DNA from: Candidatus Hodarchaeota archaeon
Lineage (GTDB): Archaea > Asgardarchaeota > Odinarchaeia > Odinarchaeales > JBHLKK01
Reading direction: 5' to 3'
Length of the DNA stretch: 64,000 nt
NCBI GenBank assembly: GCA_048886745.1
Contig: JBHLKK010000002.1
Span: forward strand, 9,378-73,377
Shown here: piece by piece, positions 4,670 through 51,167 of the stretch
Layout: every line of letters begins with the position of its first letter
Numbering within the stretch: the stretch's first letter is position 1
Translations under genes and position numbers: made by a program
The notes under the pieces: model-generated
The model's input: the letters and a program-made list of their open reading frames with translations, nothing else
Database searches by the model: none
Told to the model about the DNA's origin: nothing

Positions 4670-4677
4670 GGTGAATA

Positions 4678-7532: not shown

Positions 7533-7544
7533 GAGAAATGAAAG

Positions 7545-9776: not shown

Positions 9777-9789
9777 AGGTGAAAAAAGA

Positions 9790-11972: not shown

Positions 11973-11975
11973 GAT

Positions 11976-13022: not shown

Positions 13023-13026
13023 GAAG

Positions 13027-14073: not shown

Positions 14074-14634
14074 ATGCTACTGAACAATGCGTTGTTTAAG
14101 GTAATAGTCACTGGAGAGGGTGGTGTTGGAAAGACCTGCCTTGTTCAACGCTATACTAGGGGCACTTTTTATCACACAAGAACAACCATTGGAGTAGGAT
14201 TTGCCACAGCTGACGTTCATCTCAATGGAAGGGATATAAAACTCCAGATTTGGGACTTTGGTGGCGAAGAACGTTTTAGAAGACTTCTTCCCTCTTTCTG
14301 CAAAGGAGCAAGCGGCGCATTAGTCCTATTTGACTTGACTAGATTTCCCACTTTTCTTCATCTCAACGAATGGTTGGATCTCATAAGAGATAACACCAGC
14401 AATATCCCGCTGGTTCTGGCGGGATCAAAGGCCGATCTTGCCAATATGAGAGTTGTTGACAGGGAACAGATCGCAGAACTAACGAGGAAATACAATATCG
14501 AGCACTATTACGAAGTCTCCGCGAAAGATGGAATGAACATAGAGGTGGTTTTTACTCAAATTGCTGAACTAATAGTTAACTCAATTGAAACTACCAGCAT
14601 GAATGATGAACACGGCATAATGAGAATACAATAG
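14074..14634 (+). CDS. Rab/Ras-like small GTPase (divergent)
   Basis: G1 GEGGVGKT, switch-II WDFGGEERF, G4 AGSKAD, G5 EVSAKDG. Size and motif spacing are Rab-like. Confidence 0.8.
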   Translation: MLLNNALFKVIVTGEGGVGKTCLVQRYTRGTFYHTRTTIGVGFATADVHLNGRDIKLQIWDFGGEERFRRLLPSFCKGASGALVLFDLTRFPTFLHLNEWLDLIRDNTSNIPLVLAGSKADLANMRVVDREQIAELTRKYNIEHYYEVSAKDGMNIEVVFTQIAELIVNSIETTSMNDEHGIMRIQ

Positions 14635-23476: not shown

Positions 23477-25315
23477 TTGCCCAAGACCGCGAAATATATG
23501 TTTAAGATAATTACTGTCGGGGATGGGATGGTTGGCAAAACCAGTCTTATTCTACGATTCACTGAAAATACCTTCAAGGAAACCTATAAGAAAACAATCG
23601 GGGCCGATTTCGCCATCAAGAATGTTGATATTGACGGGACCATAGCCAAGCTCCAAATCTGGGATTTAGGCGGTCAGGATACTTTTAAGGATCTTCGCAA
23701 GATATTCTATCCTGGAGCCCGTGGAGCTATATATGTTTTCGATGTCTCTAACAGACCATCCTTCGAGAACATCAGACACTGGTTTAAAGATATAGATGCA
23801 GTAGTTGGGGATGTTCCCAGACTATTGGTTGGTAATAAGATAGATCTAGAGAGAGAAATAAGCTATAAAGAAGGGAAACAACTGGCCGATGAGTTAGGTA
23901 TGGATTATCTTGAGACCAGCGCTAAAACTGGAGAAAAGGTAGTGGATATATTTAAGATCATGGCAAGAGTGACAGTTGGCGAGAAAGCTGAAGGAATTCC
24001 TTCTGAGGTTCCCGCTCAAATACCTGCAAAAGTCCCTGGAATCTCTGTAGATACTTCATTTGCTATAGGTCCAGAAGCTGAACTGGAATCTGATATTCCC
24101 GCAACACCTGCTGATCTGCTACCCGCTGAACCAGCAATACTCCCTGAGGTTGTTATGGATGTCTATGAATGGATTGAATCACACAGAAACGATTTCATAG
24201 ATTTACTAAAACGGCTCGTAAGCGCTGATACAACCAATCCTCCTGGACATGAATTCAGAGCAGCTAGAATAATACTGGAAGAATTACTGAAAGACAATAT
24301 CAGATTCAGGGTTTATGAAAGCGAGAAGGATAGAACGAATGTTGTTAGTTGGTCTGGTAAAGCTGAGAACCCCTCTGTTATGCTGGTTTGTCATCATGAT
24401 GTCGCACCGCAAGTTGAGGGATGGAAACATCCGCCACTTGATGCTCTTGAAAAAGAAAATAGGATATACGGGTTAGGAGCCTGTTGTAGTAAAGGTCCCC
24501 TAGTTTCTGCCATAATGGCTCTTAGAGCGATCCACGTTCTTAATGTAGAACTAAACGGACAAGCAATGGTTGTCGCAGCATCCGATGGACTTGGAGATGG
24601 GACAATTGGATTAAGGCATCTGATAGAGGAGGTAGGACTCGCTCCAAATCATGCAATTGTAGCTAGTCCTACAAACTGTACAACAATAAAGACCGTAGAA
24701 CTGGAGACACTGGCCTTCAGACTTACGAGCAGAGGACGAGTGTTTGAACCTTCATTTAAGGACATCAATGCTGCCGAAAAACTCGTTAAGGTGCTAGCGG
24801 GATTCAATGATTCAGACCAAAGCGAATATCCAATGCTAGCCAAATGTTCAATTAACATAAGGGAGATCAGAGGAATGCCTGGTGTTGGTGGAATTCCTGA
24901 ATGGGCAGAGGCAACTATAGATATTCGTCATCTATTCAAAGAGAACAATGAAAAGATACTCGATGAGGTTCGGAAACTCATTGATAATGTCAGGATATTG
25001 GATTCCGATGTTGATGTGACCATCGAGGAATTGCCCGAACCTCTAAAGATTGCTTCTTCAGTCGATGCTCCTGTGGTCATGGCGGTTCGAGACGGCCTAT
25101 ACAATACTATCAACAAAGAACCCTCTTTTACTGAAACCAAAGAGAATATCTTGGCGAAGATACTGGTTCAGAGCAAAATACCCGTGTGCATATTTGGTCC
25201 TGGGAATGAAGAGAAATGCAACAGTCCAAACGAGTATATTGAGATTGATGATATGATTGAGGGTGCTAAGGTTTTTGCTGCGTCCCTAATTACTTTGCTA
25301 GGTATTAAAGACTGA
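23477..25315 (+). CDS. Fusion protein: Rab-like small GTPase, Pro-rich linker, then a divergent M20 (ArgE/DapE-like) peptidase domain
   Basis: N-terminal 170 aa: GDGMVGKTS (G1), WDLGGQDTF (G3), GNKIDL (G4), ETSAKTG (G5). Linker PSEVPAQIPAKVPG...PATPADLLPAEPAILPEV. C-terminal domain with M20 landmarks (VCHHDVAPQVEGWKHPP, IYGLGACCSKG, GPGNEEKCNSPNEYIEIDD). TTG start at 23477 preceded by AAGGGGG; an alternative ATG lies at 23498. Confidence 0.75.
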   Translation: MPKTAKYMFKIITVGDGMVGKTSLILRFTENTFKETYKKTIGADFAIKNVDIDGTIAKLQIWDLGGQDTFKDLRKIFYPGARGAIYVFDVSNRPSFENIRHWFKDIDAVVGDVPRLLVGNKIDLEREISYKEGKQLADELGMDYLETSAKTGEKVVDIFKIMARVTVGEKAEGIPSEVPAQIPAKVPGISVDTSFAIGPEAELESDIPATPADLLPAEPAILPEVVMDVYEWIESHRNDFIDLLKRLVSADTTNPPGHEFRAARIILEELLKDNIRFRVYESEKDRTNVVSWSGKAENPSVMLVCHHDVAPQVEGWKHPPLDALEKENRIYGLGACCSKGPLVSAIMALRAIHVLNVELNGQAMVVAASDGLGDGTIGLRHLIEEVGLAPNHAIVASPTNCTTIKTVELETLAFRLTSRGRVFEPSFKDINAAEKLVKVLAGFNDSDQSEYPMLAKCSINIREIRGMPGVGGIPEWAEATIDIRHLFKENNEKILDEVRKLIDNVRILDSDVDVTIEELPEPLKIASSVDAPVVMAVRDGLYNTINKEPSFTETKENILAKILVQSKIPVCIFGPGNEEKCNSPNEYIEIDDMIEGAKVFAASLITLLGIKD

Positions 25316-26970: not shown

Positions 26971-27924
26971 TTGAAGGAAAAGTTAAATTATAGGAAAATA
27001 ATAATAAAGACTGAGACCAAAACGCATGAAAAAGATGTGTTAGTCATGATACTTTACGGTGTATCGGATACTGGTGATCTGAACGAATTGAAAGGGGACA
27101 AACCAATTAAGGATTATTTGGTTAGCGACAAGGTTCTTATTTTAATAGATGACGACTTGAAGAAAATTTGGATATGGAAAGGTAAAAGCGCCCCTGTCCG
27201 ACAGAAATTTATTAGTGCGCGAGTGGCAAATCAAATAAGGCAAGAAAGAGGATTGACCTACAAAACTCTAAGCATTGATGAAGGTGATGAATCGCAAGAG
27301 TTTCTTGATTCATCAGGAGCCAAACCAAAGAAAGCCCCCCATCCTCCCCTTCCAGCTGAGCCCAAGCCTCCCGCTCCTGTTCCGGCTCCTGAGTCTGTTC
27401 CAACACCGGCTGCTTCAGCTCCCAAGCCCTTGGCCAAACAGCCTGAAGCACCAAAAACTCCAATGACGTCAAAAGCCACTTCACCTGTGCCCTCCCCCGC
27501 CACAGCAATCGTTACACCTCTTGAAGCGGAGGTGATATCAAAACTTGAAAGAGTTGAAATCCCTCGTGGATATGAAAGAGAGTTGGTTATCGTTGGCAAT
27601 GAGGTGTATGCAATCACAGAATACAGAACGATTTTTCTGGGGGAGAAGAAGGTTGAAACAAAGCTGGAAAAAGCTGCCAAGCTGCCAGAGGGGATATTTT
27701 TCGCAGAAGGTTACACACCCAGGGTAATAGTGGACAAAGGTCGCGTTCTGGCTGTTGAATTCTTGAAAACGGGTAAGGGGGTTGAAGTTCCTACCACGGA
27801 TGCTGCTGCCCGTTCATTGCGAGATGAAATGAAACTACATCTGAGCGACCTAGTCGATTTCTTCAAAATAGATATCCCTAAGAAAGAGAAGAAGCAGAAG
27901 AAGGAAAAGAAGGGAAAGAAATAG
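26971..27924 (+). CDS. Gelsolin-domain protein: N-terminal gelsolin/villin-type domain, polyproline linker, C-terminal domain with a Lys-rich tail
   Basis: VSDKVLILIDDDLKKIWIWKGKSAPVRQKFISARVANQIRQERGLTYKTLSIDEGDESQEFLD aligns motif-for-motif with gelsolin/villin G1 (..DCFILD....I..W.G..S...E...A......IRD.ER.G.A...V..EG.E...ML.). Then PHPPLPAEPKPPAPVPAPESVPTP. It ends KKEKKQKKEKKGKK. Confidence 0.6.
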   Translation: MKEKLNYRKIIIKTETKTHEKDVLVMILYGVSDTGDLNELKGDKPIKDYLVSDKVLILIDDDLKKIWIWKGKSAPVRQKFISARVANQIRQERGLTYKTLSIDEGDESQEFLDSSGAKPKKAPHPPLPAEPKPPAPVPAPESVPTPAASAPKPLAKQPEAPKTPMTSKATSPVPSPATAIVTPLEAEVISKLERVEIPRGYERELVIVGNEVYAITEYRTIFLGEKKVETKLEKAAKLPEGIFFAEGYTPRVIVDKGRVLAVEFLKTGKGVEVPTTDAAARSLRDEMKLHLSDLVDFFKIDIPKKEKKQKKEKKGKK

Positions 27925-37886: not shown

Positions 37887-38510
37887 ATGCTCTTGATAAG
37901 TCTTTATCAACTAAAGATTAATTTATTACTTCCCCCTATCGATTCAAAGGAGAAGATAGTGTTGCCAGAAGAAGATGTTGAAATTCTTGCAGAACTAAAA
38001 GCTTTCATAGAGAAAGAGATTGAAAGGAAGCAGGAAGAGGCAAATACACTTAGGCGATTTCTCAAGGCTGTTGATGCATTTCTCGTAAAAAGCAGTTTCA
38101 AGACTGCAGATAAGTTCACCGGCAAGAGGGAAGAACTTAAAGTTGAAATGATGGGGGAGACTCTCTCCATAAAATCAGGCAATATCGAGTTAGCTACGAT
38201 GTATATTGACAATAAAGAAATTCGAATAATCCCTGTGCCGGAACATCGATTCGATCCAGGAATACCTCCTTTTGATTCATTCTTTGTAAATAGGATAATG
38301 AACAATATGAAAGACGAAGATCAGGCCAAAGTAGAAGCTGGCGAATTAACCCAAGAAGATGCTTTCGCATTTGAGGTCAAGATTGAAGACGGGATCTTAG
38401 AGGAGATAATCATCAGAAACGCAGGAAGTCAAGAAAGAAATAGAGAAATACAGAGGACAATAAGATGGACTTTGGAAAAGATGTGGGAAAAGAAAGAGTC
38501 CAAATCATAG
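37887..38510 (+). CDS. Hypothetical protein (N-terminal coiled-coil-like region)
   Basis: 207-aa ORF diverging from the zinc-ribbon/winged-helix pair. No recognisable motif. The N-terminal 20 aa may not be translated (possible start at about 37953). Confidence 0.35.
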   Translation: MLLISLYQLKINLLLPPIDSKEKIVLPEEDVEILAELKAFIEKEIERKQEEANTLRRFLKAVDAFLVKSSFKTADKFTGKREELKVEMMGETLSIKSGNIELATMYIDNKEIRIIPVPEHRFDPGIPPFDSFFVNRIMNNMKDEDQAKVEAGELTQEDAFAFEVKIEDGILEEIIIRNAGSQERNREIQRTIRWTLEKMWEKKESKS

Positions 38511-38514
38511 TAGC

Positions 38515-38934
38515 GTGAATCCAAAGGAGGTATTAATGATTCAGGATCTAATCAGGGAGTTTGTTAACAAGAAGAATGTTTATGCTGTCATAGGAGTGAG
38601 TAGAAATCCAGAAAAATATGGTCATAGAGTTTACAAGGATTTGCGGAGTGCAGGTTACAAAGTCTATCCAATTAATCCAAAAATAGATGAGGTCTTGGGA
38701 GATAAGGTCTATCCCGATCTGGGAAGTCTACCTGAAAAACCCGATGTCGTAGATGTAGTGGTCCCTCCCAAGATAACTGAAGAAGTTGTTAAAACATGCA
38801 AACAGCTTGGAATTACAAAAATCTGGCTGCAGCCAGGTTCAGAATCTAATTTGGCAATTAAATTCTGCCAGGAAAACGGCATAGATGTTGTGTACGGAGT
38901 ATGCGTAATGAAAGAAAGATTAGTACATCATTAA
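38515..38934 (+). CDS. CoA-binding domain protein (YccU/YneT-like)
   Basis: NVYAVIGVSRNPEKYGHRVYKDLRSAGYKVYPINPK...VVDVVVPPK...KIWLQPG is the CoA_binding_2 pattern. Confidence 0.7.
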   Translation: MNPKEVLMIQDLIREFVNKKNVYAVIGVSRNPEKYGHRVYKDLRSAGYKVYPINPKIDEVLGDKVYPDLGSLPEKPDVVDVVVPPKITEEVVKTCKQLGITKIWLQPGSESNLAIKFCQENGIDVVYGVCVMKERLVHH

Positions 38935-38983
38935 ATCTTGCTGTCTTCCCCTCATTAATCAATAACCATAGGTTGAGAGTATC

Positions 38984-39418
38984 TTGTCCAAGAGTTCAGC
39001 ATTTGAATTAAAGGCCATCGGTATTGTAGAAAGCTCTGGACCCACATCTGAAATAAGCGTCTTTCCGGAGTATTGCTCAGGTCTACAGAGTCTTGTAGAA
39101 TTTTCGCATGCCATCATATTATACTGGTTTCATCTCAGAGATAGCAGAGAGGAAAGAAGTGTATTGAGTGTAATTCCTAAAAAACATCCTGGGGCACCCC
39201 CGGTCGGAGTGTTTGCATCCAGAAGTCCTAGTAGGCCAAACCCAATTGGTTTGTGTGTTGCCAAGATAATAGGAGTAGTTAATTGTACTCTTACTGTGAA
39301 AGGTCTAGATGCGTTTGAAGGATCTCCGATAGTCGACATAAAACCCTACCTTTCGGGGAATGATGCTGTCCTTGGGACCAGGGCTCCCGAATGGGCATTG
39401 CATAAATCCCCAACTTAG
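38984..39418 (+). CDS. TsaA/TrmO (YaeB)-family SAM-dependent tRNA methyltransferase
   Basis: IGIVESS...FSHAIILYWFH....GVFASRSPSRPNPIGLCVAKI...GLDAFEGSPIVDIKPY matches the UPF0066/TrmO signature. Confidence 0.75.
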   Translation: MSKSSAFELKAIGIVESSGPTSEISVFPEYCSGLQSLVEFSHAIILYWFHLRDSREERSVLSVIPKKHPGAPPVGVFASRSPSRPNPIGLCVAKIIGVVNCTLTVKGLDAFEGSPIVDIKPYLSGNDAVLGTRAPEWALHKSPT

Positions 39419-39556
39419 AGTCGAAAGCATTTTAGAAAGCGACAGAAATACTCGTTCTCTTCACTGCAAGAATAGGGTACGGTCTTACCTCTACTCTTGA
39501 TAAGTTTCTAAGACTTAGCAGCTTCTTTAAGCCTTCAGCTTCAATCCTGTATTTAT

Positions 39557-39844
39557 CTATTGATGCGTCTGTGCCTCTTCAACAACTCTATGACCTGCAA
39601 CTACCTGATCGATACTGTGAATAGAACCCCCAAGTTCTTCCAACTCCTGCTTGATCAAATCAAATTTTAAGTCAGGACCTACAATGGTTATTTTGATGCT
39701 CTCTGTTTCGGCGTCGACTTCGATCAAAGAGATATTCACTCCACTTACTCCATCTAGTCTCGCTATTCTGTCTGCCAGTGTGTGTAGTTGAGGATTATGT
39801 GGCTTGAGAACGTCTAGCACAAGACGTTTGATGCCATAACTCAT
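39557..39844 (-). CDS. Small conserved archaeal protein (possibly DUF211-like)
   Basis: 95 aa, RLVLDVLKPHNP...GVSGVNISLIEVDAETESIKITIVG. The family assignment is from memory only. Confidence 0.35.
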   Translation of the reverse strand: MSYGIKRLVLDVLKPHNPQLHTLADRIARLDGVSGVNISLIEVDAETESIKITIVGPDLKFDLIKQELEELGGSIHSIDQVVAGHRVVEEAQTHQ

Positions 39845-39907
39845 TTATGTGGCGACACCTCAAAACTTTAAGGCTATACTCGATAATCTTTTGGAATTAT
39901 TTAAGTT

Positions 39908-40600
39908 TTATTGTTCTGGCTGATAACACATGTTATCTAGAAAATCTGTCAACTCTGATACCACTCCGATGGTGTGATCGGCTCCCCCTTTCTTTAATTC
40001 TTCTGCTGTCTTCATGGAAGTCTCAACGCCGATAGTTAATACTCCAATACTGTTGGCCGCTTGAAAATCTACTGGATGATCGCCAACAACTATTGTTTTT
40101 TCTGGTGCTATTCCCAGAAGTTCGATCACCTTGCCCAAATGCTCGATACTGGGTTTTGGTTTAATAACATCATCTCGGGTCACGACAACATCAAAGAATC
40201 TTCTAATATTGGTTTTTTCAAGGACGTAGTTGGCAATCAGGTCCCTATTTAGCGTGAAAATTCCAAGCTTAAATCCTCTCCTCTTGAGCTCCTCCAGGGT
40301 TTCTATGACTCCGGGAATCAGCGAGGTCATCTCGGCACCATCAAGCTCATATTTTTCGATTGCACGATCTACTGCCTGTCTTATTTCCTTTAACTCCGTC
40401 TCTTTTGCCCCTTTTTTCTTGAGATAATCAAATACTTTGCCTACGGTGGTGAAGATCGGTTCAGTTGTTGATAAAAGCTCGGGGTCTATGTTATGTTCTC
40501 GAAGTCGGTCTAAGGCCTTTTTTCGTGCGCTCATATAATCAATCTTAAACCACACTAGAGTTCCATCGAGATCGAAAATGATAGCTTTGAATTTGCGCAT
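39908..40600 (-). CDS. HAD-superfamily hydrolase (phosphatase/phosphomutase subfamily IA)
   Basis: N-terminal FKAIIFDLDGTLV (motif I, DxDG) and downstream GDHPVD (motif IV). Confidence 0.8.
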   Translation of the reverse strand: MRKFKAIIFDLDGTLVWFKIDYMSARKKALDRLREHNIDPELLSTTEPIFTTVGKVFDYLKKKGAKETELKEIRQAVDRAIEKYELDGAEMTSLIPGVIETLEELKRRGFKLGIFTLNRDLIANYVLEKTNIRRFFDVVVTRDDVIKPKPSIEHLGKVIELLGIAPEKTIVVGDHPVDFQAANSIGVLTIGVETSMKTAEELKKGGADHTIGVVSELTDFLDNMCYQPEQ

Positions 40601-40633
40601 CTCGGTACTCCTCGGTACATATTATTGAGATGA

Positions 40634-41752
40634 TTACTCGACTTCCATAGTAAGAGGCTTGGAAACAAAATCAAAGAATTTCTGCGGGATAAAACTCTCG
40701 AATCTTACCTTCGCTCTTATCCCGTCAAACCTCAGGTATTTGGTTCCTTCTGTCAAAGTGAATACATATTTGAATTCTCTTTCATCCTCGGGCTTAAGAT
40801 CCTTGACTTCCCAGAATTTTCGTCTTCTATCCTCAGAACCTTCCCAGACCATATCTGATATTATTGCTTGAGTGACTTCTTGGTCTGATTTATTTGAAAT
40901 AATGACCTTAACAACATTCTCTCCATCTCGGTTGATGGGCAATTGCACTTCACGCTCTACACCGACATTGGGACAAACAAAGATCGGCCCTACTCGGACC
41001 TTGGTTCTGCCTATGCCAAGATATATTTCGTCGAATTTGTAGTTCATATCTGCCATCAAATGCATCTCACCAATCTCTTTTGCCTTGATTATCAATTCAC
41101 CATTCCTAGGTGCATTCACAAACGGAGAGTGAAAATCAAAGTCGACCCCTCGAGTATGCGGCTCAATCTCACAAGGTGTATCGGCATACCAGTCAAACCG
41201 TATCTCGCAACCTTCAGGCCTAGGATTCCTAACGGAGTAAGGAATTTCTGTTCGCTCTCCTTGCCTGATGGCTACTGTGTAGAAAACAAACCTTGGAAAT
41301 ACATTTGCAGTCAAGGATGATATTTCCCGCTTTGGATGAACCAGGCTTTCGCCGCACTTAACGCAAAAAAGCTTAATTGCTTCAAACAAACGTTCCTGAT
41401 GTAGCTCCTTTCTGGCTATTGCTTTCAGTTCTTCCTCCGAAGACCCTTCTATTCTAAGACTAGTGGTTCTTGAATCCCATCTGCAGTATGGACAGCGGAG
41501 GAGGTATTTCTTTCCAGCTTCTACCTCTAAGTCACTGCTGCAGATAGGACATTCAAAGCAATTTGGGCATTCTGTAAAGTACTCTCTAGCGGTCTTAACA
41601 TCCGTTGTCCAGCCGCATCGATAACATTTGTAGCTCACAGGTACTCTATGTGCACATTTCTCGCATACAACTTCCTGACAAGGCAAACAAAAAAAGCTGC
41701 GGTATCCAGATTTGAATTCTCCGCATCGGGAGCAAATGTACTCTACCGGCAA
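40634..41752 (-). CDS. Multi-zinc-ribbon protein with a dynactin subunit 4 (p62)-like N-terminal cysteine pattern
   Basis: N-terminal 100 aa: CSRCGEF...CLPCQEVVCEKCA...CYRCGW...ECPNCFECPICSSDLEVEAGKKYLLRCPYCRWDSRT. From memory, the CxNCF(D/E)CPxC ... Y(Y/L)LxCx(F/Y)CRW(T/D)SR spacing matches the dynactin p62 zinc-binding N-terminus. C-terminal 250 aa is beta-rich. Confidence 0.4.
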   Translation of the reverse strand: MPVEYICSRCGEFKSGYRSFFCLPCQEVVCEKCAHRVPVSYKCYRCGWTTDVKTAREYFTECPNCFECPICSSDLEVEAGKKYLLRCPYCRWDSRTTSLRIEGSSEEELKAIARKELHQERLFEAIKLFCVKCGESLVHPKREISSLTANVFPRFVFYTVAIRQGERTEIPYSVRNPRPEGCEIRFDWYADTPCEIEPHTRGVDFDFHSPFVNAPRNGELIIKAKEIGEMHLMADMNYKFDEIYLGIGRTKVRVGPIFVCPNVGVEREVQLPINRDGENVVKVIISNKSDQEVTQAIISDMVWEGSEDRRRKFWEVKDLKPEDEREFKYVFTLTEGTKYLRFDGIRAKVRFESFIPQKFFDFVSKPLTMEVE

Positions 41753-41762
41753 TTATCATCAC

Positions 41763-42311
41763 CTATTTGGTCTTTTCAAAAGTCTCTACAAATCGAATAT
41801 ATGCTTCTATGAATTCTTCATGTCTTTCCTGTTCGCCCAGACCTAGCTTTCTTATCAAGTTGGCTGGATTTCCCGCCATAACGGATTCTGGTGGGACTAC
41901 GGCCTTATTCGGAACTACCGAACCAGGCAGAATTACATCACCCTGGTTAAGCTGGGACTCACGCTCTATTACTGCATTATTGCCCACAAAGCAATAATCT
42001 GCAATATATGATCCCTGAACAACCGCTCCTTTTCCAATAAAAACATAGTTACCGATTATTATGCTTCCGTGGTTTAGTGTACCATCAATAAAAACCTCTG
42101 GGGGATAAATAATGGCATTATCTTGTATAACCACATAGTTTCCCATAGTGACTCTACCTAGATCCCCCCTAATGATAACCCCTTGACCTATGTACGTATG
42201 CTCACCTATTCTTACATCACCTACAATTCTTGCAAGATCATCGATATATGCACTCTTATGAACCTCAGGTTCCACACCCTTATGTTTCAAAATAGGACAC
42301 ACGATCTCCAC
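41763..42311 (-). CDS. Gamma-class carbonic anhydrase / hexapeptide-repeat (left-handed beta-helix) protein
   Basis: Repeated [LIV]-G-x4 hexapeptides and the metal-ligand His pattern of the CamH/PaaY/YrdA family. 182 aa. Confidence 0.8.
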   Translation of the reverse strand: MEIVCPILKHKGVEPEVHKSAYIDDLARIVGDVRIGEHTYIGQGVIIRGDLGRVTMGNYVVIQDNAIIYPPEVFIDGTLNHGSIIIGNYVFIGKGAVVQGSYIADYCFVGNNAVIERESQLNQGDVILPGSVVPNKAVVPPESVMAGNPANLIRKLGLGEQERHEEFIEAYIRFVETFEKTK

Positions 42312-42506
42312 GCTCTTGAAAAATCATTCATTGCAAAGATGTAAATAAAGCTATTTGTTTTCAGAACCAGCAAATCCTCCGGTAGATGATCAAATGAAGA
42401 TAGGTAATAAGCTTCAAATAGCTAACCTTCTATGAGATTGTTCTCTGACATTCACTCAGAGAAAAATCGCTTCATTGAGCTCCCAAAGGCAATCACAAAT
42501 TCTGAG

Positions 42507-43703
42507 CTATTCTACATGAACTCTGAATAAGTCGATATCGCTCCAGTATTTCATTTCTTCAAAGGTCTTCAAGAACTCTCTAACCGCTCTCTCAACATCC
42601 AGAGATTGTGTAATATATCTTCCTACTATCAGGATGTCCGCACCACTCTTCAAAGCCAAGCTTGCTGTTTCAGGAACCACGCCGCCAGCAACAGCTACCA
42701 ATACTTTCTTCTTCTTGTAGAGCCCCCTAATCTCTTTGATGAAATCCCACCGGGGTTTTTCAGAAGCTTCTACATCTATGGCACGATGCAGAATTACGAC
42801 GTCTGGTTTCTCCTTAAGACCCGTAAGCTTCTCAACAGGATCTTCAACGTTCATCATGTCTACTACTGCATAAATGCCGAGTCTTTGTGCCTCATAGATG
42901 AATTTGTCAAGTGTTTCCTTTGCTGCTAGACCTGAAGCTACTACTGCATCTGAGGTTGCCTCGTAAGCCATATCAACTTCAACTTTTCCTACGTCAAGAG
43001 TCTTAAGGTCACAAGTTATGAATACGTCTTTCGCGACCTCTCTCATTTTTCTAACAACATCAACTCCATATCTTTTAACCAAAGGCGTACCTGCCTCAAG
43101 CAGGATCCTATCACTATGAGGAACCTGTTTCATAATTTCCAATGTCTTCGTGAATGAGGGAATATCTAACGCTATTTGCAGGTAAGGAGGTCTCCACAGC
43201 CTTGGAACTCTGAATCCCATAATGGGATGTGTGGCTCTATCCTTATCATATAATATCTTGTCTATGGACGGATAGCCTATCATTGCACGCTTCAAGGCAA
43301 GCTTTGTTGCACCGTAATTATAATGATATATCTTGCGGAAATCTTGAGCATTTGGATGGATAAATACGCTACATATTACTACCCACTCGTCAATCTTGTC
43401 TTTCGGTATGATCTCCTCCTCGACAGCATCTGCTATCGCCTTTGCAACTGCTGATTGTGCTGGTCCAAATATCTTTGATGCTTGTTCCAGATTTTTCACA
43501 GTAACCTTTGGTATTACTAAAGTCATGGGTTTTGAGGGAAGATTCGGTCTGATTACTGCCAGTAGAGGAGTGTGTCCCACTGAAAGCTGAGCTAAGCTGT
43601 TAGCAAAAGCTTGCCCAACAGGGCCTTCCTTATCTCCAATTATCAAATCTACATGAGCAACTTCGTCTCCCTTACCAATCAATGCTTCACCAATCAAATA
43701 CAT
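42507..43703 (-). CDS. fae-hps: Bifunctional formaldehyde-activating enzyme / 3-hexulose-6-phosphate synthase (Fae-Hps)
   Basis: N-terminal Fae domain ([33 protein letters not shown]). C-terminal OMPDC-family HPS domain (LQIALDIP...ILLEAGTPL...ADILIVGR). Confidence 0.85.
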
Positions 43704-43929
43704 TTAAGCTCTCACTCCCAACAAACAGCTTATTCTTCTCCACATATACATCTTGTTTCTATAATAATTTAAGTATTTACTAATACGACCTGATCATTTT
43801 CAAAGAATAATGATTGTTATCATTCATTTTCTGCGGCCCCGGATTGACTATTGGTCAACCTCTAGAAGTTTAAGACTTATAAGCTAGATGACAGTTATAC
43901 GTTTCAATTCATGATTTGGAGGAGAATCC

Positions 43930-44889
43930 ATGTTAAGCGTTAATAGCGAGGCCTTAAAGATTGCAAAGAACATGATCAAGAATGCAGAGCAACTCAATAT
44001 TGATGTTCAAGAATTGGACAACGGTGCAAAGGTGATAGATGCAGGAGTCCAAGCCTCAGGTGGACTCGAGGCAGGTGTTTTGACTGGAAAAATCTGTCTG
44101 GGAGGTCTAGGAGAAATTTCTCTATTCTCTTATTGGCTCGATGATATTTTGCTTCCTGCTGTAAATGTGTACAGCGACCAACCCATTGTTGCTTGCTTGG
44201 GTTCCCAATTTGCTGGCTGGAGAATCAAAGTCGGAGATTATTTTGTGATGGGTTCTGGTCCTGCTAGAGCTTTAGCTCAGGTTGAGGAAAAACTGTTCAA
44301 AGAGATCGGTTATTCAGATGAAGCAGATTCAGCAGTAATAGTTCTAGAAACTAGAAAACTTCCTGAAGAAGAGGTTATGCAGTTCATAGCTGATAAATGT
44401 GGTGTTGACGTCTCCAAAACTTATGCTATCGTGACTCCAACGGCAAGCATTTCTGGCTCAGTTCAGATCGCTGCGAGAGTAGTTGAAACAGGCATACACA
44501 AGATCACGAAGGTAGGATTGGACCCCGATCGTATTTTGCACGGATTTGGAAGCTGTCCAATAGTGCCTGTTGAGAAAAAAGACTCAAAAGCTATGGGGAC
44601 AACTAATGATGCAATACTTCTCGCCGGTTCAGTGATTCTTGGTGTCCGAAGCAAAGAAGAAGATGAACTGAAGAATATAGTAGATCAAACTCCTTCATCT
44701 GCATCAAAAGACTATGGCAGACCATTCTCTGAAATCTTTAAATCAGTAGGTGGAGACTTTTATAAGATAGATCCTGGAATCTTTGCTCCGGCTTTGATTG
44801 TAGTCAATGATGTGCGAACGGGGATAACCTACAAGGCCGGACGTATCAACAGCGAAATGTTGAAGAAAAGCCTGGGTTTTAAAGAATAA
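43930..44889 (+). CDS. mch: Methenyltetrahydromethanopterin cyclohydrolase
   Basis: MLSVNSEALKIAKNMIKNAEQLNIDVQELDNGAKVIDAGVQASGGLEAGVL... matches the Mch N-terminus (VN..A...V..MI..AE.LN..V.EL.NG..VID.GV.A.GG.EAG). About 320 aa, typical Mch length. Confidence 0.85.
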   Translation: MLSVNSEALKIAKNMIKNAEQLNIDVQELDNGAKVIDAGVQASGGLEAGVLTGKICLGGLGEISLFSYWLDDILLPAVNVYSDQPIVACLGSQFAGWRIKVGDYFVMGSGPARALAQVEEKLFKEIGYSDEADSAVIVLETRKLPEEEVMQFIADKCGVDVSKTYAIVTPTASISGSVQIAARVVETGIHKITKVGLDPDRILHGFGSCPIVPVEKKDSKAMGTTNDAILLAGSVILGVRSKEEDELKNIVDQTPSSASKDYGRPFSEIFKSVGGDFYKIDPGIFAPALIVVNDVRTGITYKAGRINSEMLKKSLGFKE

Positions 44890-44956
44890 ACTTAAATACT
44901 TTTACCAAACTAGAAATCTAATCCAGGGAGTAGGAAACTTATCGGGGAGACCGCCG

Positions 44957-45535
44957 TTGGATAGATATATTGATGCATTAAAAAAGCTCAGGGAGATACT
45001 AGCCACATTCACCCAGAAACTCTTCAATGTCTTCCCGTTCATAGTGGATGGAGAGAGCCTTAAGGAGCGAATGGCTAGCGCCGATAAAACATCCAAACGC
45101 ATTGAAGAAGCCTTAAACGCTCTAAAAACGTGGCTCAGTGAGATACTACTTCTTCTGACTGCAGCCAGATCCTTACTGTGGCATCTAGAAACATCTGCCG
45201 AGGAGTCTGAAAGCGTAAAAGAAGTCAAAGACAGAATAAGGATATTCCTAATCCCCGAATTTGAACGCTATGTCGACAGCTTGATGCGCGAAACAGAAAT
45301 AATCGATAGCCGTATCGTGCCTCTAATAGACGTTTTTGAGCGGCTTGAAGCAACATCAGGAAGTGTACATGAAAGAGCTAAGTACTTCAAGAGAATCACC
45401 CAATTTGATGAAAAAAGTGGAGAAAGCGACATAACCAGGCTATTTAGGTTTATTCTGACGGACAACATGAAAGCATTTGAGAAGCTTGAAAAGGAAGTAA
45501 AGAATCGCCTAAATGCATCCTCCAAGAGCGAATAG
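44957..45535 (+). CDS. Hypothetical alpha-helical protein
   Basis: 192-aa ORF with good coding character. No motif recognised. Confidence 0.35.
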   Translation: MDRYIDALKKLREILATFTQKLFNVFPFIVDGESLKERMASADKTSKRIEEALNALKTWLSEILLLLTAARSLLWHLETSAEESESVKEVKDRIRIFLIPEFERYVDSLMRETEIIDSRIVPLIDVFERLEATSGSVHERAKYFKRITQFDEKSGESDITRLFRFILTDNMKAFEKLEKEVKNRLNASSKSE

Positions 45536-45661
45536 TTCGCTTATAATAGCTTGAATAGCAACAATCATATAGATCAAGTCGCTTTGTCTTTTGACTAAGA
45601 TGTCGACTCAAACAGAATTTGAAGATGTTTGTACAATCTCAAATTCAAGGAGGTAATGATA

Positions 45662-46159
45662 ATGGAAGTTATTGACTCCATAAAGGAGAGAAGAAGTATC
45701 AGAAGATTCAAGCAGAAAAATATAGAAGAAGAGAAGATCTCAATCTTACTAGATGCCATGAGATGGGCTCCATCTGCCGGAAACAGGCAACCTTGGGAGT
45801 TCATAATCGTAAGGAACAAAGAGTCACTCTCGAAGATTGCCACTGAAGCTCCCTACGGGGCTTTTATAGCTGATGCTCCCCTGGCAATAGCAATTGTAAC
45901 GGATCCGAAAACCTCCAGATGGCATGTTGTTGATGGTAGCTTGGCCTCTCAGAACTTCCAATTGGCAGCCTGGGCTTTGGGTCTGGGAACCTGTTGGATA
46001 GGTAGCATGAATCGGGAATCTGTTAAAAAGATTCTGGGTATACCTGAGGAGAAGTATCTGTTAACTATTTTTCCTTTAGGATATCCTGATGAGAAACCTG
46101 TCAAAAATAGAAAATCTCTTGATTTACTAATTCACAATGAGAAATACTCATCTGATTAA
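45662..46159 (+). CDS. Nitroreductase-family flavoprotein, second paralog
   Basis: MEVIDSIKERRSIRRFKQKNIEEEKISILLDAMRWAPSAGNRQPWEFIIV. GGAGG lies 8 nt before the ATG at 45662. The listed ORF start at 45629 is probably upstream read-through. Confidence 0.75.
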   Translation: MEVIDSIKERRSIRRFKQKNIEEEKISILLDAMRWAPSAGNRQPWEFIIVRNKESLSKIATEAPYGAFIADAPLAIAIVTDPKTSRWHVVDGSLASQNFQLAAWALGLGTCWIGSMNRESVKKILGIPEEKYLLTIFPLGYPDEKPVKNRKSLDLLIHNEKYSSD

Positions 46160-46340
46160 AGCGGACGAAGAAACATATCCCACAACTGACTTCTGCCTAC
46201 TAATAAATCCCCCACTATAATAGTTATTGCTGTAGCTTGATCTGAAGCATTGCCACTGGACTTCTGGCAAAATTGGACTATCACCTAATTGTACAGAAAA
46301 GATCATTCATAGGGCTGCTTTTGGAGACAGTCTAATGTGC

Positions 46341-46736
46341 CTAGTCAAAAACTTTCTTCATTAAGTCTAGGAGAAGACCCTTGGCCATTTTCATTGATTC
46401 CTGACCCCGCTGGGTAATACGATAATACTTTCTGTCCTGTCTTTTTGTTTCATTTTTCTCTAGACTTACTTCGACCAAACCATCCCGTTTCATTTTGTAT
46501 AGAATGACATAGCCTGTGACTATTGCTGGAGAGAATCCAAACCTCTTTCTTATTTCGTTTTTGATTTCATAGCCATATCTTGGACGCTCTTGAAGAAGAC
46601 GCAGAATGTATAACCACAGATTTTCTTTAGTCAGCATCTTCCTAAGTCTCTTAAATGCTTTGGTTTCACTCTCTTCAGAAGTTGAAGACTCTGAACTCAC
46701 CTTCGCTAACCTCTTCAGATAATATGGTTGAATCAT
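46341..46736 (-). CDS. PadR-family winged-helix transcriptional regulator
   Basis: LYILRLLQERPRYGYEIKNEIRKRFGFSPAIVTGYVILYKMKRDGLVEV is the PadR signature (HGYEI...SPGTLYP.L..LE..GLV). Confidence 0.75.
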   Translation of the reverse strand: MIQPYYLKRLAKVSSESSTSEESETKAFKRLRKMLTKENLWLYILRLLQERPRYGYEIKNEIRKRFGFSPAIVTGYVILYKMKRDGLVEVSLEKNETKRQDRKYYRITQRGQESMKMAKGLLLDLMKKVFD

Positions 46737-46807
46737 GCTTTTGCTTTGGTGGATATGTTCTCCTTCTATAATAGTTTAACTCAAACTAATAATAGATTTC
46801 GCTAATT

Positions 46808-47404
46808 TCACAGCTTCCAGTCCAGCTCTTCATGTACAAGCGTAATACATTGACTTGCCAGATAAGTCAAAGGACCGACGCTAATTTGAATAGCCCCCAA
46901 TCCTCGAAGTACATTTTCATCAGCTTTACCTAAGCCCATGTGGTCCCCCATTACGAAAACCAAATGATTGTCCCTGGGGAAGTCAAAATCACGAATATCT
47001 TGCCCTTTTTGATGCAAATAGAATAGAGCTCCCTCACCTTTCAATTCATCCGTGATTCTATTGAAGTTTTTGGGACATATGCTAATGCCTGGCCATTCAT
47101 CCAATACCTTTTCAACTTCTGAGGGTTTTCCCAACAATTGACTCATAATCTTGGCTACTTCGAATTCATCATCAGGAAGACGTTGCAGTCTTCTGCCTTC
47201 GACCGCTATAAGTCTGGGTGGTAATGGTTCCCCCTCTAGCAGACCATAGAAATCTGTATTTTGCTTTTCTCTCTTTTTTCCGAATGCAGAAATCAGACAC
47301 CGACACACTACATCCAGTCTACCGCTGGTTCCAGGTATATCTTTTATTGAAAAATCAGGAATTGTGTGCGCGGTTCCAGATTTTACGACAAATATCCGCT
47401 TCAA
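46808..47404 (-). CDS. trmY: tRNA (pseudouridine54-N1)-methyltransferase TrmY-like SPOUT protein
   Basis: FVVKSGTAHT...FSIKDIPGTSGRLDVVCRCLISAF...LLEGEPLPPRLI matches the DUF358/TrmY pattern (LPG.GR.D..CR....AF). Confidence 0.65.
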   Translation of the reverse strand: MKRIFVVKSGTAHTIPDFSIKDIPGTSGRLDVVCRCLISAFGKKREKQNTDFYGLLEGEPLPPRLIAVEGRRLQRLPDDEFEVAKIMSQLLGKPSEVEKVLDEWPGISICPKNFNRITDELKGEGALFYLHQKGQDIRDFDFPRDNHLVFVMGDHMGLGKADENVLRGLGAIQISVGPLTYLASQCITLVHEELDWKL

Positions 47405-47502
47405 TCCAAAGCACCATCATTTAATGACAAATGAACACTCAATATTGCCCTCCTCTACTAGCCGTGATGATTTCTTAGTAAGCTCATTAATTGCATCCAT
47501 CG

Positions 47503-47772
47503 TCATTTTCTGGTGTCTCTTGATCGAATTTTAACCACACCTCTATGAACAGCACAGCTTACGCATGCAAACTTTGTTACTCGTTCTCTAGGAATGAATG
47601 TTCCCTTTTGTCTCAGTTCCCGAGCAATTGTCGGTTCAACGAAACTAACATATTTTGTTACTCGTTTAATCTTATCTCTCGGTACTCGCTTTCCACAAAA
47701 TGAACACTGAACCATACTTTTTTTCCCAGATGAACCTTTGGCTCTTCCTCGACTTTTCCTTTTCTTAGGCAA
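47503..47772 (-). CDS. rps26e: Ribosomal protein eS26
   Basis: (L)PKKRKSRGRAKGSSGKKSMVQCSFCGKRVPRDKIKRVTKYV...FACVSCAVHRGVVKIRSRDTRK is the eS26 pattern (KKRRN.GR.K.GRGHV..IRC.NC.RCVPKDKAIK...YCVSCAIH..VVR.RSRE.RK). Probable TTG start at 47772; the tracked ORF extends to 47826. Confidence 0.7.
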   Translation of the reverse strand: MPKKRKSRGRAKGSSGKKSMVQCSFCGKRVPRDKIKRVTKYVSFVEPTIARELRQKGTFIPRERVTKFACVSCAVHRGVVKIRSRDTRK

Positions 47773-47847
47773 ATATTGCACCCCAATGAACAGATAATAA
47801 TTCACGTTATAAGTTTTTGGAATCAATAATGATCGATATGGACTCGC

Positions 47848-48756
47848 CTATTGATGGAGAAGGTTTTCGTTCCTTCTTTTGACCTCCTCAAGTCTCATTG
47901 GAAACTCTGGACCTGTGTATTCAACCATTATGGACGCCGCTGCTGATGCGAAGTAGCCAGATCGAAAAACATCACCAGTCCTCAAGTATTCAAAGACGAA
48001 TGATCCTGCATAAGTGTCGCCCGCTCCTGTCGGATCTCGAGCAAGAGTCTTATATGCGGGAATTCTGATGATGTTCTTTCCATCATATATGACTGAACCT
48101 CTCTCTGCAAGCGTAACTATACCAACATCTGCTCCCCAGTCTACAAGCTTTTTGGCAGATTCCTGCGGTTTTTCTATTCCAGTCATAACCAAGGATTCAT
48201 GTTCGTTTGGCTTTACAAAGTGTACAAGATCCACGATCTTTTTTATCTCATCGCGGCTGCAAGCACGTTTAACTCTGCCTCCATCTCCTATTATCCTGGT
48301 TATCCCTTGAGGATCCAGGAATAAGATAGCGTCGCTCTCTTTACGTAGAAATGAAATCAAATCGTAATCAACTTCTTGGAGTATCGGTCCTATAATAATC
48401 GCTTTGGCATCTAGGCATTCTCTCGGAAAGCTCTGAATAGTAATCTTGTCAGCTATTCCGAGCACATCCAGTGTCCTGTCACCTTTTTCATCATAAACGA
48501 GCTTGAAGCCTCCTGTCTCCTCTGATATCATCAATTTAGGTATTTCTACACCAAATCTCTCTACGTCCTCAGTAAATACTGCCTTGAAGTCTTTTCCAAT
48601 GTAGCCGACTAGCGCCGCTCTCCTAATGCCGAGCTTTTTGGCAGCTAAACACGCATTAGTACTGCACCCTGACAGAACACGTTTCTTGGTTGACAGATAG
48701 GGAGTTATTATTATGTCATATACCGGATTTCCCACGGCAACAATATCATAAGTCAT
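47848..48756 (-). CDS. PfkB-family carbohydrate/nucleoside kinase
   Basis: MTYDIVAVGNPVYDII N-terminus and C-terminal DPTGAGDTYAGSF (ribokinase anion-hole motif). AAGGAG RBS before the ATG at 48756. The upstream 31 codons of the tracked ORF overlap the next gene and are probably untranslated. Confidence 0.75.
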   Translation of the reverse strand: MTYDIVAVGNPVYDIIITPYLSTKKRVLSGCSTNACLAAKKLGIRRAALVGYIGKDFKAVFTEDVERFGVEIPKLMISEETGGFKLVYDEKGDRTLDVLGIADKITIQSFPRECLDAKAIIIGPILQEVDYDLISFLRKESDAILFLDPQGITRIIGDGGRVKRACSRDEIKKIVDLVHFVKPNEHESLVMTGIEKPQESAKKLVDWGADVGIVTLAERGSVIYDGKNIIRIPAYKTLARDPTGAGDTYAGSFVFEYLRTGDVFRSGYFASAAASIMVEYTGPEFPMRLEEVKRRNENLLHQ

Positions 48757-49381
48757 CTGCTTCTCCTTCTTTTTGCTTAATTCCCTCTGTCTTTCTCCAA
48801 GTATAATGAAGGCGCTGTAACACTGTAATTTGAGAAAGGACCCCAACAAGAATAATACAGACTTCCAAGATGTTTTGGCCTAGAAAAAGAATAGTTGGCC
48901 ACAGATAAACGAATATGATACCAACTATAATTAGAATCAGTTTTTCCTGACGCTCTGCGATTCCCACGGTACACTTCTCCAATCGTCCTACTGACTCGGC
49001 TTTAGCTCTGACAAAGCTAGCCATTACCATGCTAAAGAAAGCAAAAAATCCCCAAACCCACCATACGAAGCCGCCAAAAACCAATCCGAGGATAATTAGG
49101 AACTCAGTATACCTGTCAAGCAGATGATCCAGAACAGCTCCAAATCTTGTGGTAGCACCGGTCGCTCTTGCAATTGCACCGTCAAGCATGTCAATGAAAC
49201 CAGTCAGCAGAATCAGGATGAGCCCCCAGATTAATGCTCCGAGAGCGAGTAATATACAACAAAAAACACTAACGACAAGGCTGATTACTGTTACTATATT
49301 GGGTGTTAGGCCAATCCTAGATAGCCGCCTTCCTACTGGCAACATTAATTTTTCATACCTTTCTCTAAGTTTGCCTAACAC
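48746..49381 (-). CDS. CDP-alcohol phosphatidyltransferase (archaeal phospholipid head-group synthase type)
   Basis: DGAIARATGATTRFGAVLDHLLDRYTE is the D-G-x2-A-R-x8-G-x3-D-x3-D motif. Polytopic. Confidence 0.8.
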   Translation of the reverse strand: MLGKLRERYEKLMLPVGRRLSRIGLTPNIVTVISLVVSVFCCILLALGALIWGLILILLTGFIDMLDGAIARATGATTRFGAVLDHLLDRYTEFLIILGLVFGGFVWWVWGFFAFFSMVMASFVRAKAESVGRLEKCTVGIAERQEKLILIIVGIIFVYLWPTILFLGQNILEVCIILVGVLSQITVLQRLHYTWRKTEGIKQKEGEADDL

Positions 49382-49517
49382 TGCCCATCACGCTCGACGC
49401 ATCTTTTCTGGAACTCTTAGTTTTAAACCTTTTGCTCTTATTAAAAGGTTTATAAACGATTTTGACCTCCAATCTTAAGAGGTTCAATCCATACCCTAGA
49501 CGGGGGATTACTACTAG

Positions 49518-51167
49518 ATGATACACTCTCACTGGTTGGAAGAAATACTTCAAAAACTATATGATAGAGAAGCTGACCCGGTGGTCCTAAACACCGGCAA
49601 ATCAACTAGTGGAGAATTCCATATGGGAATTTTCCGTGAGCTTCTGATCTGTGATAGCCTTGGCCGTCTGCTTACAAGTGGAAATACCAATTGGGATTTC
49701 TATTTAATTATGGATGATTTTGATGCTGCAAAACGTTTTCCAGACTATATCCCCAAAGAGTTTGAAAAATACATAGGTACCCCATTTTCGGACATCCCAT
49801 GTCCTGATAATGATTGTGAGAGTTATGCGCGTCACTATGCAATGAACCTGATCAAAACATTCGATGATTTTGGAATAGACCCAAAGATCGTCTGGAGTTC
49901 AAAGCTTTATGAATCGCCAGAGATGAAAGATGCTATACGTATCGCCCTCAAGAACGTGGAATTGATAAGAAAGATTCTAAAGAAATACATCGCCCCAACG
50001 TTAAGAGAAGAGGAAGTTGAGGATTACTTAATAGAGATGGAGGAGAGATGGCCCGCCACCATAATCTGCGAGAAGTGTGGGAAGCTACAGGCAAAAGCAG
50101 AAGGTAGGATTCAACCGAACAGAATTACCTCCTTCGATCCAGTAGCTGACAGAGTGACTTATGTATGCCCGGCTTGTGGTTATGAGGGAGATACAACTAT
50201 TGCCAAAGCGAGAATCAAATTGACATGGAGAATAGATTGGCCAGCAAAATGGTTCATTTATTGTGTGACGTGTGAGCCGGCTGGAAAAGATCATACTGTA
50301 AAAGGCGGTGCTTATGACACAGGGCTGGAGATTTGTCAAAAGATCTACGGATATGAAGGACCAGTGAAGGTAGTGTATGAATGGGTCAGATTCGGTGAGG
50401 CAGACATGAAAACTTCTAGAGGTATAACCTTCACCCCACGTGAATTCCTCCGTATATGCTTTCCCGAAGTATTCAGATACCTAATTCTCCGAACTCACCC
50501 CTCAAAGCACATAAGTTTCAGACCGGAGCTTTTGGTTCAACTAGTAGACGAGTATGATCGGTTTGAGAGGATCTATTATGATCTGGAAGAGGCAGATGAA
50601 GAAGAAAAGAACGAGGCGAAGTTCCTTTATCCCCTGTGTCAGATTAAAGAGGTTTCCTCAGAGATTCCGAAACGCCTTCCATACCGTTTTGCAATCATAT
50701 TCTCACAACTGAAGAATCTTCTTACAAAGGAGAAGGTATTGGAAAAAGCAATTGACGTGGTCAAAAAAAGCTATCAAATAGACAAAGTTACGGATGATAC
50801 AATTAAGACCATTCAAATGACCCTCCAGCGTGCCGAAAACTGGACGAAGTCATATGGTCCTCCTGAGTTCGTATTGGATATTCCAAAAGAAGTTACAAAC
50901 GAAATAAAAGAAAAGTTGAGCGATAAGCAAAGAGAAGGCTTAAGACTGCTTGCAGAATTCCTTGAATCTGAAGATTTGGATGAGGAAACCCTTCAAAACA
51001 GAGTATTCACTTTAGGAAAAAAAGAGCTAGGAATAGGGGCAAAGAAAATGTTTCAAGCCATATACTTAGCAATTATAGGGAAGAAATTCGGTCCAAGGAT
51101 GGCCCCCTTTCTACTTTCGTTGGAACGAACTTGGGTAATAGAAAGGCTTCTGGATGCAGCAAAATAG
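49518..51167 (+). CDS. lysK: Lysyl-tRNA synthetase, class I
   Basis: SGEFHMGIFRELL (HIGH-type motif of class I LysRS, H-[IVM]-G-N/I-FRE). MKTSRG (KMSKS variant). Internal zinc-binding CEKCGK...CPACGY. 549 aa. Confidence 0.8.
   Translation: MIHSHWLEEILQKLYDREADPVVLNTGKSTSGEFHMGIFRELLICDSLGRLLTSGNTNWDFYLIMDDFDAAKRFPDYIPKEFEKYIGTPFSDIPCPDNDCESYARHYAMNLIKTFDDFGIDPKIVWSSKLYESPEMKDAIRIALKNVELIRKILKKYIAPTLREEEVEDYLIEMEERWPATIICEKCGKLQAKAEGRIQPNRITSFDPVADRVTYVCPACGYEGDTTIAKARIKLTWRIDWPAKWFIYCVTCEPAGKDHTVKGGAYDTGLEICQKIYGYEGPVKVVYEWVRFGEADMKTSRGITFTPREFLRICFPEVFRYLILRTHPSKHISFRPELLVQLVDEYDRFERIYYDLEEADEEEKNEAKFLYPLCQIKEVSSEIPKRLPYRFAIIFSQLKNLLTKEKVLEKAIDVVKKSYQIDKVTDDTIKTIQMTLQRAENWTKSYGPPEFVLDIPKEVTNEIKEKLSDKQREGLRLLAEFLESEDLDEETLQNRVFTLGKKELGIGAKKMFQAIYLAIIGKKFGPRMAPFLLSLERTWVIERLLDAAK

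Follow-up and report, generated by a model that had tools for sequence, protein, structure and literature searches.

To our knowledge, no prokaryotic relatives of dynein-dynactin components have been described besides actin and the widespread roadblock/LC7 domain. In dynactin, the subunit p62 (DCTN4) has a β-sandwich built from N- and C-terminal sheets and a central, cysteine-rich saddle, which comprises two zinc ribbons and a site to which both halves of p62 contribute (Lau et al. 2021, PMC8047447). According to the same study, p62 also has a long helix and a disordered loop that touches β-actin and binds each of the three cargo adaptors investigated. Its saddle wraps the terminal Arp11 at the pointed end, and the subunit p25 (DCTN5) is held in dynactin mainly by p62, through an interface of 2,746 Å2 (Lau et al. 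2021, PMC8047447). Here, we analysed a 64,000-nucleotide stretch of contig JBHLKK010000002.1 (assembly GCA_048886745.1, positions 9,378 to 73,377), referred to as the window, in which an open reading frame (ORF) at 40634–41752 on the minus strand encodes an archaeal homologue of p62. The identical protein in NCBI is registered as a "hypothetical protein" of a metagenome-assembled genome (MAG) of Candidatus Hodarchaeota archaeon. The phylum Hodarchaeota lies within the Asgard kingdom Promethearchaeati and has been placed closest to eukaryotes.

An archaeal p62-like family had already been noticed. Supplementary table MOESM7 of Eme et al. 2023 (Nature) lists, under cytoskeleton, a two-protein "putative dynactin p62 family" (arCOG07221) that occurs in the Odin column only (Hod = 0). 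The neighbouring entry of the table is an Odin-specific "putative actin-like family". The family is absent from the discussion in the main text of that paper, and the entry mentions no p25-like partner, operon, or missing insert. That cluster (S1SH2070019254) very probably corresponds to the family analysed here, of which WEU39897.1 of Odinarchaeum yellowstonii LCB_4 is a member. A full-text literature search on dynactin, DCTN4, and p62 in Asgard archaea, Odinarchaeota, archaea, and prokaryotes retrieved no paper describing an archaeal module. The text of a 2026 structure-based paper on eukaryotic signature proteins (PMC12962969) names no dynein or actin-related proteins (Arps), a mention in its supplement being possible. 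In the searched literature, four features thus appear to be undescribed: the occurrence of the family in Hodarchaeota, the match of the full-length fold, the lack of the adaptor insert, and the conserved operon with a p25-like gene.

Homology of the encoded protein to DCTN4

The gene starts with TTG, ends with TAA, and encodes 372 aa, whereas most full-length eukaryotic matches have approximately 380–500 aa and the DCTN4 chains in PDB 460–467 aa. Comparison with its orthologue in another locus, L007 (approximately 80% identity), gave a pN of 0.11, a pS of 0.62, and a dN/dS of approximately 0.09, indicating a genuine gene that is subject to purifying selection. The base composition around it showed nothing unusual. 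Two antisense ORFs at 40659–40871 and 40943–41320 were set aside, as homologues, Pfam and profile matches, and codon substitutions all favoured the minus frame.

As a single sequence, the protein had Dynactin_p62 (PF05502) as its top Pfam match, with E = 0.0029 and 16.9 bits. A preliminary description of this DNA had proposed the dynactin p62 relationship with this family as a check; the family was the right one, but the score remained below the gathering cut-off of 25.3 bits. The comparison of the single sequence with DCTN4 in PDB gave E = 0.13. Close homologues were scarce, and all of them came from Hodarchaeota and Odinarchaeia. When a profile of six homologues was searched against PDB, DCTN4 ranked first (E = 4.1e-5), and all other zinc fingers had E > 0.3. 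The same archaeal profile yielded 147 matches at E ≤ 1e-3 in an exhaustive hmmsearch against 1.84 billion representative proteins. The top seven were members of the archaeal family, and the remainder, beginning at E = 5.6e-11, were eukaryotic, a level of resemblance that chance would not produce. Pfam assigned 114 of the 128 matches scanned to Dynactin_p62 (best E = 6e-136), and the source names among the matches included EukProt protists and a chytrid "dynactin p62 family-domain-containing protein".

The reciprocal search agreed with this result. A hidden Markov model (HMM) of eight eukaryotic DCTN4 sequences gave the window protein 68.5 bits and missed 7 of 163 sequences, namely one archaeal C-terminal fragment and six sequences matching other parts of the profile. 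Furthermore, hhalign between 8 archaeal and 35 eukaryotic sequences returned a probability of 99.75% and E = 3e-27 over 205 columns covering residues 2–207. This span indicates that the homology runs past the second CxxC region into the first β-sandwich; the resemblance to DCTN4 noted earlier for the N-terminus is therefore real but is not confined to it. The profile searches, hhalign, and the Foldseek comparison described below all agree on the p62 relationship, and we concluded that the encoded protein is a homologue of dynactin subunit 4 (p62) from an Asgard archaeon.

A generic protein with multiple zinc ribbons, whose likeness to p62 came from cysteine spacing through convergence or composition, would be consistent with the sub-threshold Pfam match of the single sequence and with the weak RING, zinc-ribbon, and LIM matches that were also present. 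None of these competing families matched better than p62: zf-RING_5 reached E = 0.03, and the LIM and zinc-ribbon matches in PDB had E > 0.3. Against such a protein, the profile search led almost exclusively to DCTN4 rather than to other zinc-finger families, non-cysteine positions and the β-sandwich aligned as well, the full-length fold matched DCTN4, and the p25-like neighbour provided independent corroboration. Convergence of this kind is thus extremely improbable, and a generic zinc-ribbon identity was counted as already refuted by the profile search, Pfam scan, hhalign, and Foldseek.

Among the 1.84 billion representative proteins, the archaeal family was distributed over Odinarchaeia, Hodarchaeota, and one unclassified Asgard archaeon. 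The window protein shared 41–43% identity with the Odin versions and 32% with a second Hodarchaeota type. A locus search retrieved one locus (L007) from the genome collection and none from the metagenome collection, results that say little on distribution since narrow search patterns were used. One very divergent member, P0161 / P0011 (368 aa, 23% identity), has kept the N-terminal cysteine pattern. Its C-terminal region is charged and aligned poorly with the β-sandwich of the other members; its contigs are only 0.8–1.5 kb long.

Zinc saddle and absence of the adaptor insert

Seven CxxC pairs were found within the first 100 residues (7/10, 22/25, 30/33, 43/46, 62/65, 68/71, and 87/90), followed by W92 and S94. 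The ORF reads as the preliminary description quoted it, with more than the minimum of five pairs counted there. This region (residues 1–100; 41453–41752, minus strand) aligns to DCTN4 residues 26–124 and corresponds to the cysteine-rich zinc saddle. An eighth CxxC, C130/C133 (41354–41365, minus strand), lies somewhat before the position of about 140 given earlier, and the quoted spacings were in part a little inexact. W92, S94, and all 16 cysteines were invariant among the 8 archaeal homologues, and the first 14 cysteines were kept in 84–100% of 56 eukaryotic DCTN4 sequences. C130/C133 paired with the eukaryotic RCxxC in the hhalign alignment, which was used for this motif because the MAFFT alignment misplaces it. 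Like DCTN4 (PF05502; 6ZNL chain Y and 9B7J chain K), the archaeal protein has the 14 N-terminal cysteines, the CxxCxWxS motif, and the later CxxC. Judged from the alignments, the zinc-site cysteines of p62 are therefore present in the archaeal protein, and its second-region CxxC would close a zinc site together with the N-terminus, as in the p62 architecture.

The spacing between CxxCxW and the later CxxC was 40–45 residues in archaea but 138–191 residues (median 154) in 35 eukaryotes, and hhalign opened a gap at this place. The eukaryotic segment of approximately 110 residues, which consists of the helix and the disordered loop and carries adaptor site 1 and the β-actin contact, was absent in all archaeal members compared. 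From this difference in spacing, the long helix and adaptor loop appear to be reduced to one short helix at the same site (residues 106–116; 41405–41437, minus strand), as seen in the secondary structure of the model. The absence of the insert is expected for an organism without known dynein.

Predicted fold

The AlphaFold2 model of the p62-like protein, computed with an alignment of 70 sequences, had a mean predicted local distance difference test score (pLDDT) of 94.4 and a predicted template modelling score (pTM) of 0.78. When this model was compared with PDB by Foldseek, a check suggested with the original proposal, the best four matches were the DCTN4 chains 9b7j_K, 7z8f_Y, 8pr4_Y, and 6znl_Y. 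They had E = 6.9e-15 to 6.9e-11 and template modelling (TM) scores of 0.54–0.58 over 362–411 columns. The next matches were Ig domains of the transglutaminase type, with TM scores of approximately 0.25.

In the model, the saddle is followed by β-sandwich regions in the same order as in DCTN4. The first β-rich (sandwich) region comprises residues 119–260 (40973–41398, minus strand); it is covered by hhalign to residue 207 and by a Foldseek match of 362 columns. The C-terminal Ig-like β-sandwich (residues 262–372; 40637–40969, minus strand) lies inside the Foldseek match to DCTN4 and was predicted confidently also in a model from archaeal sequences only. In sequence searches, it gave weak matches of the BatD, DUF11, CARDB, and TRAP_beta type. 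A weak match of residues 208–303 to a T-cell receptor alpha chain in the PDB profile search was taken as generic Ig-fold likeness. The predicted overall fold, saddle and β-sandwich, agrees with that of DCTN4.

A p25-like β-helix gene upstream

The neighbour that matters is a gene that the preliminary description had overlooked. Immediately upstream of the p62-like gene, an ORF at 41763–42311 on the minus strand (alternative GTG start at 42302) encodes a left-handed β-helix protein related to DCTN5, as supported by the Pfam DCTN5 model, HMM cross-scores, and linkage. Both this protein and DCTN5 have 182 aa and a left-handed β-helix with a C-terminal helix; the identity to human DCTN5 was 28%. 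The two also have the motifs IIRGDL, PP after the first ligand position, and VVPP in common. On Pfam DCTN5 (PF21711, cut-off 40 bits), the window protein scored 66.5 bits and its Odin counterparts 51 and 46 bits, whereas the genuine γ-carbonic anhydrases (γ-CAs) 6SC4 and 9QEZ, used as a control, scored 34 and 28.4 bits. The closest sequences in PDB were γ-CA-like (6SC4, E = 3e-26), with DCTN5 next at approximately 3e-15. The archaeal protein has the same fold as the γ-CA-like proteins 6SC4, 9QEZ, and 1V3W and shares with them the loop inserted behind the first ligand position.

We compared the two relationships with an HMM built from metazoan DCTN5 sequences; the human DCTN5 sequence was checked to be identical to the PDB chain. 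Seven Asgard partner proteins scored 63–83 bits and 38 γ-CAs 16–55 bits, so that the DCTN5 HMM preferred the Asgard partners over the γ-CAs by approximately 25–30 bits. The reverse comparison concurred: four representative DCTN5 sequences received 83–94 bits from the Asgard HMM and 56–67 bits from the γ-CA HMM.

The zinc-binding histidine triad was present in 37–38 of the 38 γ-CAs, in none of 21 DCTN5 sequences, and in none of the seven Asgard proteins. Instead of these histidines, the window protein has Y69, K94, and Q99; the three positions are mostly Y/K/Q in the Asgard proteins and mostly R/E/N in DCTN5. On the NCBIfam γ-CA model (cut-off 250 bits), the protein scored 87.5 bits, and it reached the cut-off of no enzyme model in the NCBIfam scan. 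With the histidines replaced and the score far below the γ-CA cut-off, the protein is not expected to be an enzyme. On this sequence evidence, the upstream gene appears to encode a catalytically dead γ-CA-type β-helix protein, the closest prokaryotic relative of p25 (DCTN5) found in this analysis.

Conserved pairing of the two genes

In six distinct loci of Hodarchaeota and Odinarchaeia (the window, L001, L002, L003/L004, L005/L006, and L007), the β-helix gene is the immediate upstream neighbour of the p62-like gene, in the same orientation and at a distance of 10–45 nt. Between these loci, the identity of the p62-like proteins goes down to 32%. In L005/L006, all other neighbours differ; the β-helix and p62-like genes are therefore a conserved unit. 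In archaea, the p62-like gene is thus paired with the gene of a p25-type protein, which recalls the partnership of DCTN4 and p25 in dynactin. The archaeal genes, however, are arranged in an operon, and the host is not known to have dynein or other dynactin subunits.

In the window, the two genes are separated by the 10-nt spacer GTGATGATAA (41753–41762, minus strand). The junction is TAG-GTGATGATAA-TTG; the stop codon and spacer together read TAGGTGATGA, which is Shine-Dalgarno-like and contains the Shine-Dalgarno-like GGTGATGA. The pair is probably co-transcribed and translationally coupled, as this junction suggests. An archaeal TATA-box-like element, CTTTATTTACA (42340–42350, minus strand), precedes the GTG start of the β-helix gene by 28 nt and is a possible candidate for the promoter of the operon.

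The origin of the pair bears on what it can tell about dynactin. Had the genes been transferred horizontally from a eukaryote to archaea and then spread among Odinarchaeia and Hodarchaeota, they would be uninformative on the origin of dynactin. The patchy distribution is compatible with such a history, and so is the closer relation of the window protein to the Odin versions than to the second Hodarchaeota type. However, the insert was present in 35 of 35 eukaryotic sequences and in no archaeal member, and the archaeal β-helix is much nearer to prokaryotic γ-CAs than DCTN5 is, which fits an ancestral intermediate and not a eukaryotic import. In archaea, the two genes lie together in a tight operon of the prokaryotic kind, whereas eukaryotes encode DCTN4 and DCTN5 separately. 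In addition, the best eukaryotic matches scored alike and belonged to lineages not related to one another (among them Ancoracysta, an amoebozoan, and a chytrid), and the region showed no compositional anomaly. Transfer from a eukaryote is thus quite improbable.

The gene content around the pair was also compared between the window and L001. The window from 33835 to 51167 shares with L001 a PmbA/TldD gene pair, DUF1922, the β-helix, p62-like, and HAD genes, a CDP-alcohol phosphatidyltransferase gene, and LysRS. This common block spans approximately 18 kb, and its protein identity is only approximately 41–48%. The likeness of the window to Odin loci, in gene content and in p62-like identity, raises the question of vertical descent versus block transfer, or of the classification of the MAG.

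Proposed function of the pair

By analogy with dynactin, the p62-like and β-helix proteins would form a stable complex of the p62–p25 type, which is likely in view of how p25 is held by p62. An actin-family filament, formed by lokiactin or an archaeal Arp, would be capped or anchored by this complex at its pointed end, as the position of p62 on Arp11 suggests; for binding to a filament end as such, the chances seem a little less than even. As a whole, an archaeal p62–p25-type module that acts as a complex at the end of an actin-family filament is the explanation that we favour on balance, and we regard the pair as a pared-down archaeal form of the p62–p25 module. The data establish the homology of both proteins, the loss of the enzyme site, and the conserved pairing of the genes; the complex and its binding to a filament end are inferred. 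That the module caps or anchors archaeal actin-family filaments, in which case this part of dynactin would predate dynein, is put forward only tentatively.

Two dynactin pointed-end subunits, of the p62 and p25 types, as a conserved Asgard operon are of interest because a part of the eukaryotic dynein-cargo machinery then seems to be older than eukaryotes. The suggested order of events begins with the pair of a dead γ-CA and a zinc-saddle protein; eukaryotes would later have added p27, the adaptor-binding helix and loop, and the coupling to dynein. If this is true, eukaryotes built their motor-cargo link onto an existing module that bound actin ends. The two proteins are small and soluble and can be co-expressed, so that direct tests of the complex and of its binding to Asgard actin ends are feasible.

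Several observations weigh against this reading. The gathering score of PF05502 is reached by none of the archaeal sequences; five of the eight match the model, the best with E = 1.1e-5. The AlphaFold2 model from archaeal sequences only (six sequences) was poor, with a pLDDT of 49.5, and the alignment behind the confident model includes eukaryotic DCTN4, which makes the fold match partly dependent on the sequence match. The β-helix protein reaches 150 bits with γ-CAs but 77 bits with DCTN5 and is thus nearer to the former, and the clade of DCTN5 and the Asgard proteins had a neighbour-joining bootstrap of only 51–54% in a tree whose dynactin sequences were metazoan DCTN5. No second, p27 (DCTN6)-like β-helix gene was seen in the loci. 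The family is limited to Odinarchaeia and Hodarchaeota in a patchy manner, and no actin or Arp gene was found in the 64-kb window or the retrieved flanks. Finally, a HAD hydrolase gene follows the pair in most loci, which could point to a metabolic role.

The last two points bear on the possibility that the genes are a true p62/p25 pair whose function is unrelated to actin filaments. The pair might be a zinc-stabilised scaffold or regulator that works with a HAD phosphatase and a DUF211 protein in a metabolic or housekeeping role, and eukaryotes would later have recruited the module to dynactin. A HAD-IA family hydrolase gene (39908–40600, minus strand) lies 33 nt downstream of the p62-like gene in the window, and such a gene follows the pair with gaps of 1–33 nt in four locus types (the window and the Odinarchaeia types L001, L002, and L003/L004). 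It is followed by a DUF211 (COG1888) gene (39557–39844, minus strand) in three of them, the window, L002, and L003/L004; the membership of both genes in the module is uncertain. The neighbourhood consists of genes for housekeeping and one-carbon (C1) metabolism (Fae-Hps, MCH, LysRS, and PmbA/TldD). However, the most divergent locus (Hodarchaeota L005/L006) has neither the HAD nor the DUF211 gene and retains the pair alone, the β-helix protein is without catalytic zinc ligands, and the HAD protein matches no specific enzyme model. The wider gene content common to the window and the Odin locus L001 also means that the adjacency of HAD may reflect general gene-order conservation. A role of the pair apart from actin filaments is therefore rather unlikely, and the module at a filament end remains our preferred explanation.

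Other genes in the window

The preliminary description had pointed to a roadblock (dynein LC7-family) gene 12 kb away. An ORF of 132 aa indeed lies 12.3 kb off, at 27974–28372 on the plus strand, but its Roadblock/LC7 match was weak (20.4 bits, below the cut-off of 23), and no link to the p62-like gene was evident. The roadblock link was dropped on account of this weak Robl_LC7 match. Roadblock proteins of Asgard archaea are GTPase partners rather than parts of dynein. They are treated together with small GTPases in a paper on Asgard roadblock proteins (PMC10933270). Directly before the roadblock-like ORF, a 317-aa ORF at 26971–27924 on the plus strand matched the Gelsolin repeat with E = 0.017 and 15.4 bits, below the cut-off of 21. 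The gelsolin-like and roadblock-like ORFs may be Asgard eukaryotic-signature proteins.

Small GTPase genes of the Ras/Arf/Roc type, typical of Asgard archaea, were found at 14074–14634 (plus strand), 22354–23199 (minus strand), and 23477–25315 (plus strand). The last of these encodes 612 aa with a Ras domain and a Peptidase_M20 domain, possibly as a fusion or as two merged ORFs. An Arf/Ras-family small GTPase gene was also located approximately 3 kb downstream of the pair in L005 (6991–7509, plus strand) and L006 (6843–7382, plus strand). In addition, the window contains two tandem gene sets resembling complex I or membrane-bound hydrogenase, at 2882–8611 and 9411–13419 on the plus strand. In each set, the 30-kDa and 49-kDa subunits are fused and show a NiFe-hydrogenase signature; NADHdh, a ferredoxin, and a 20-kDa subunit are encoded as well.

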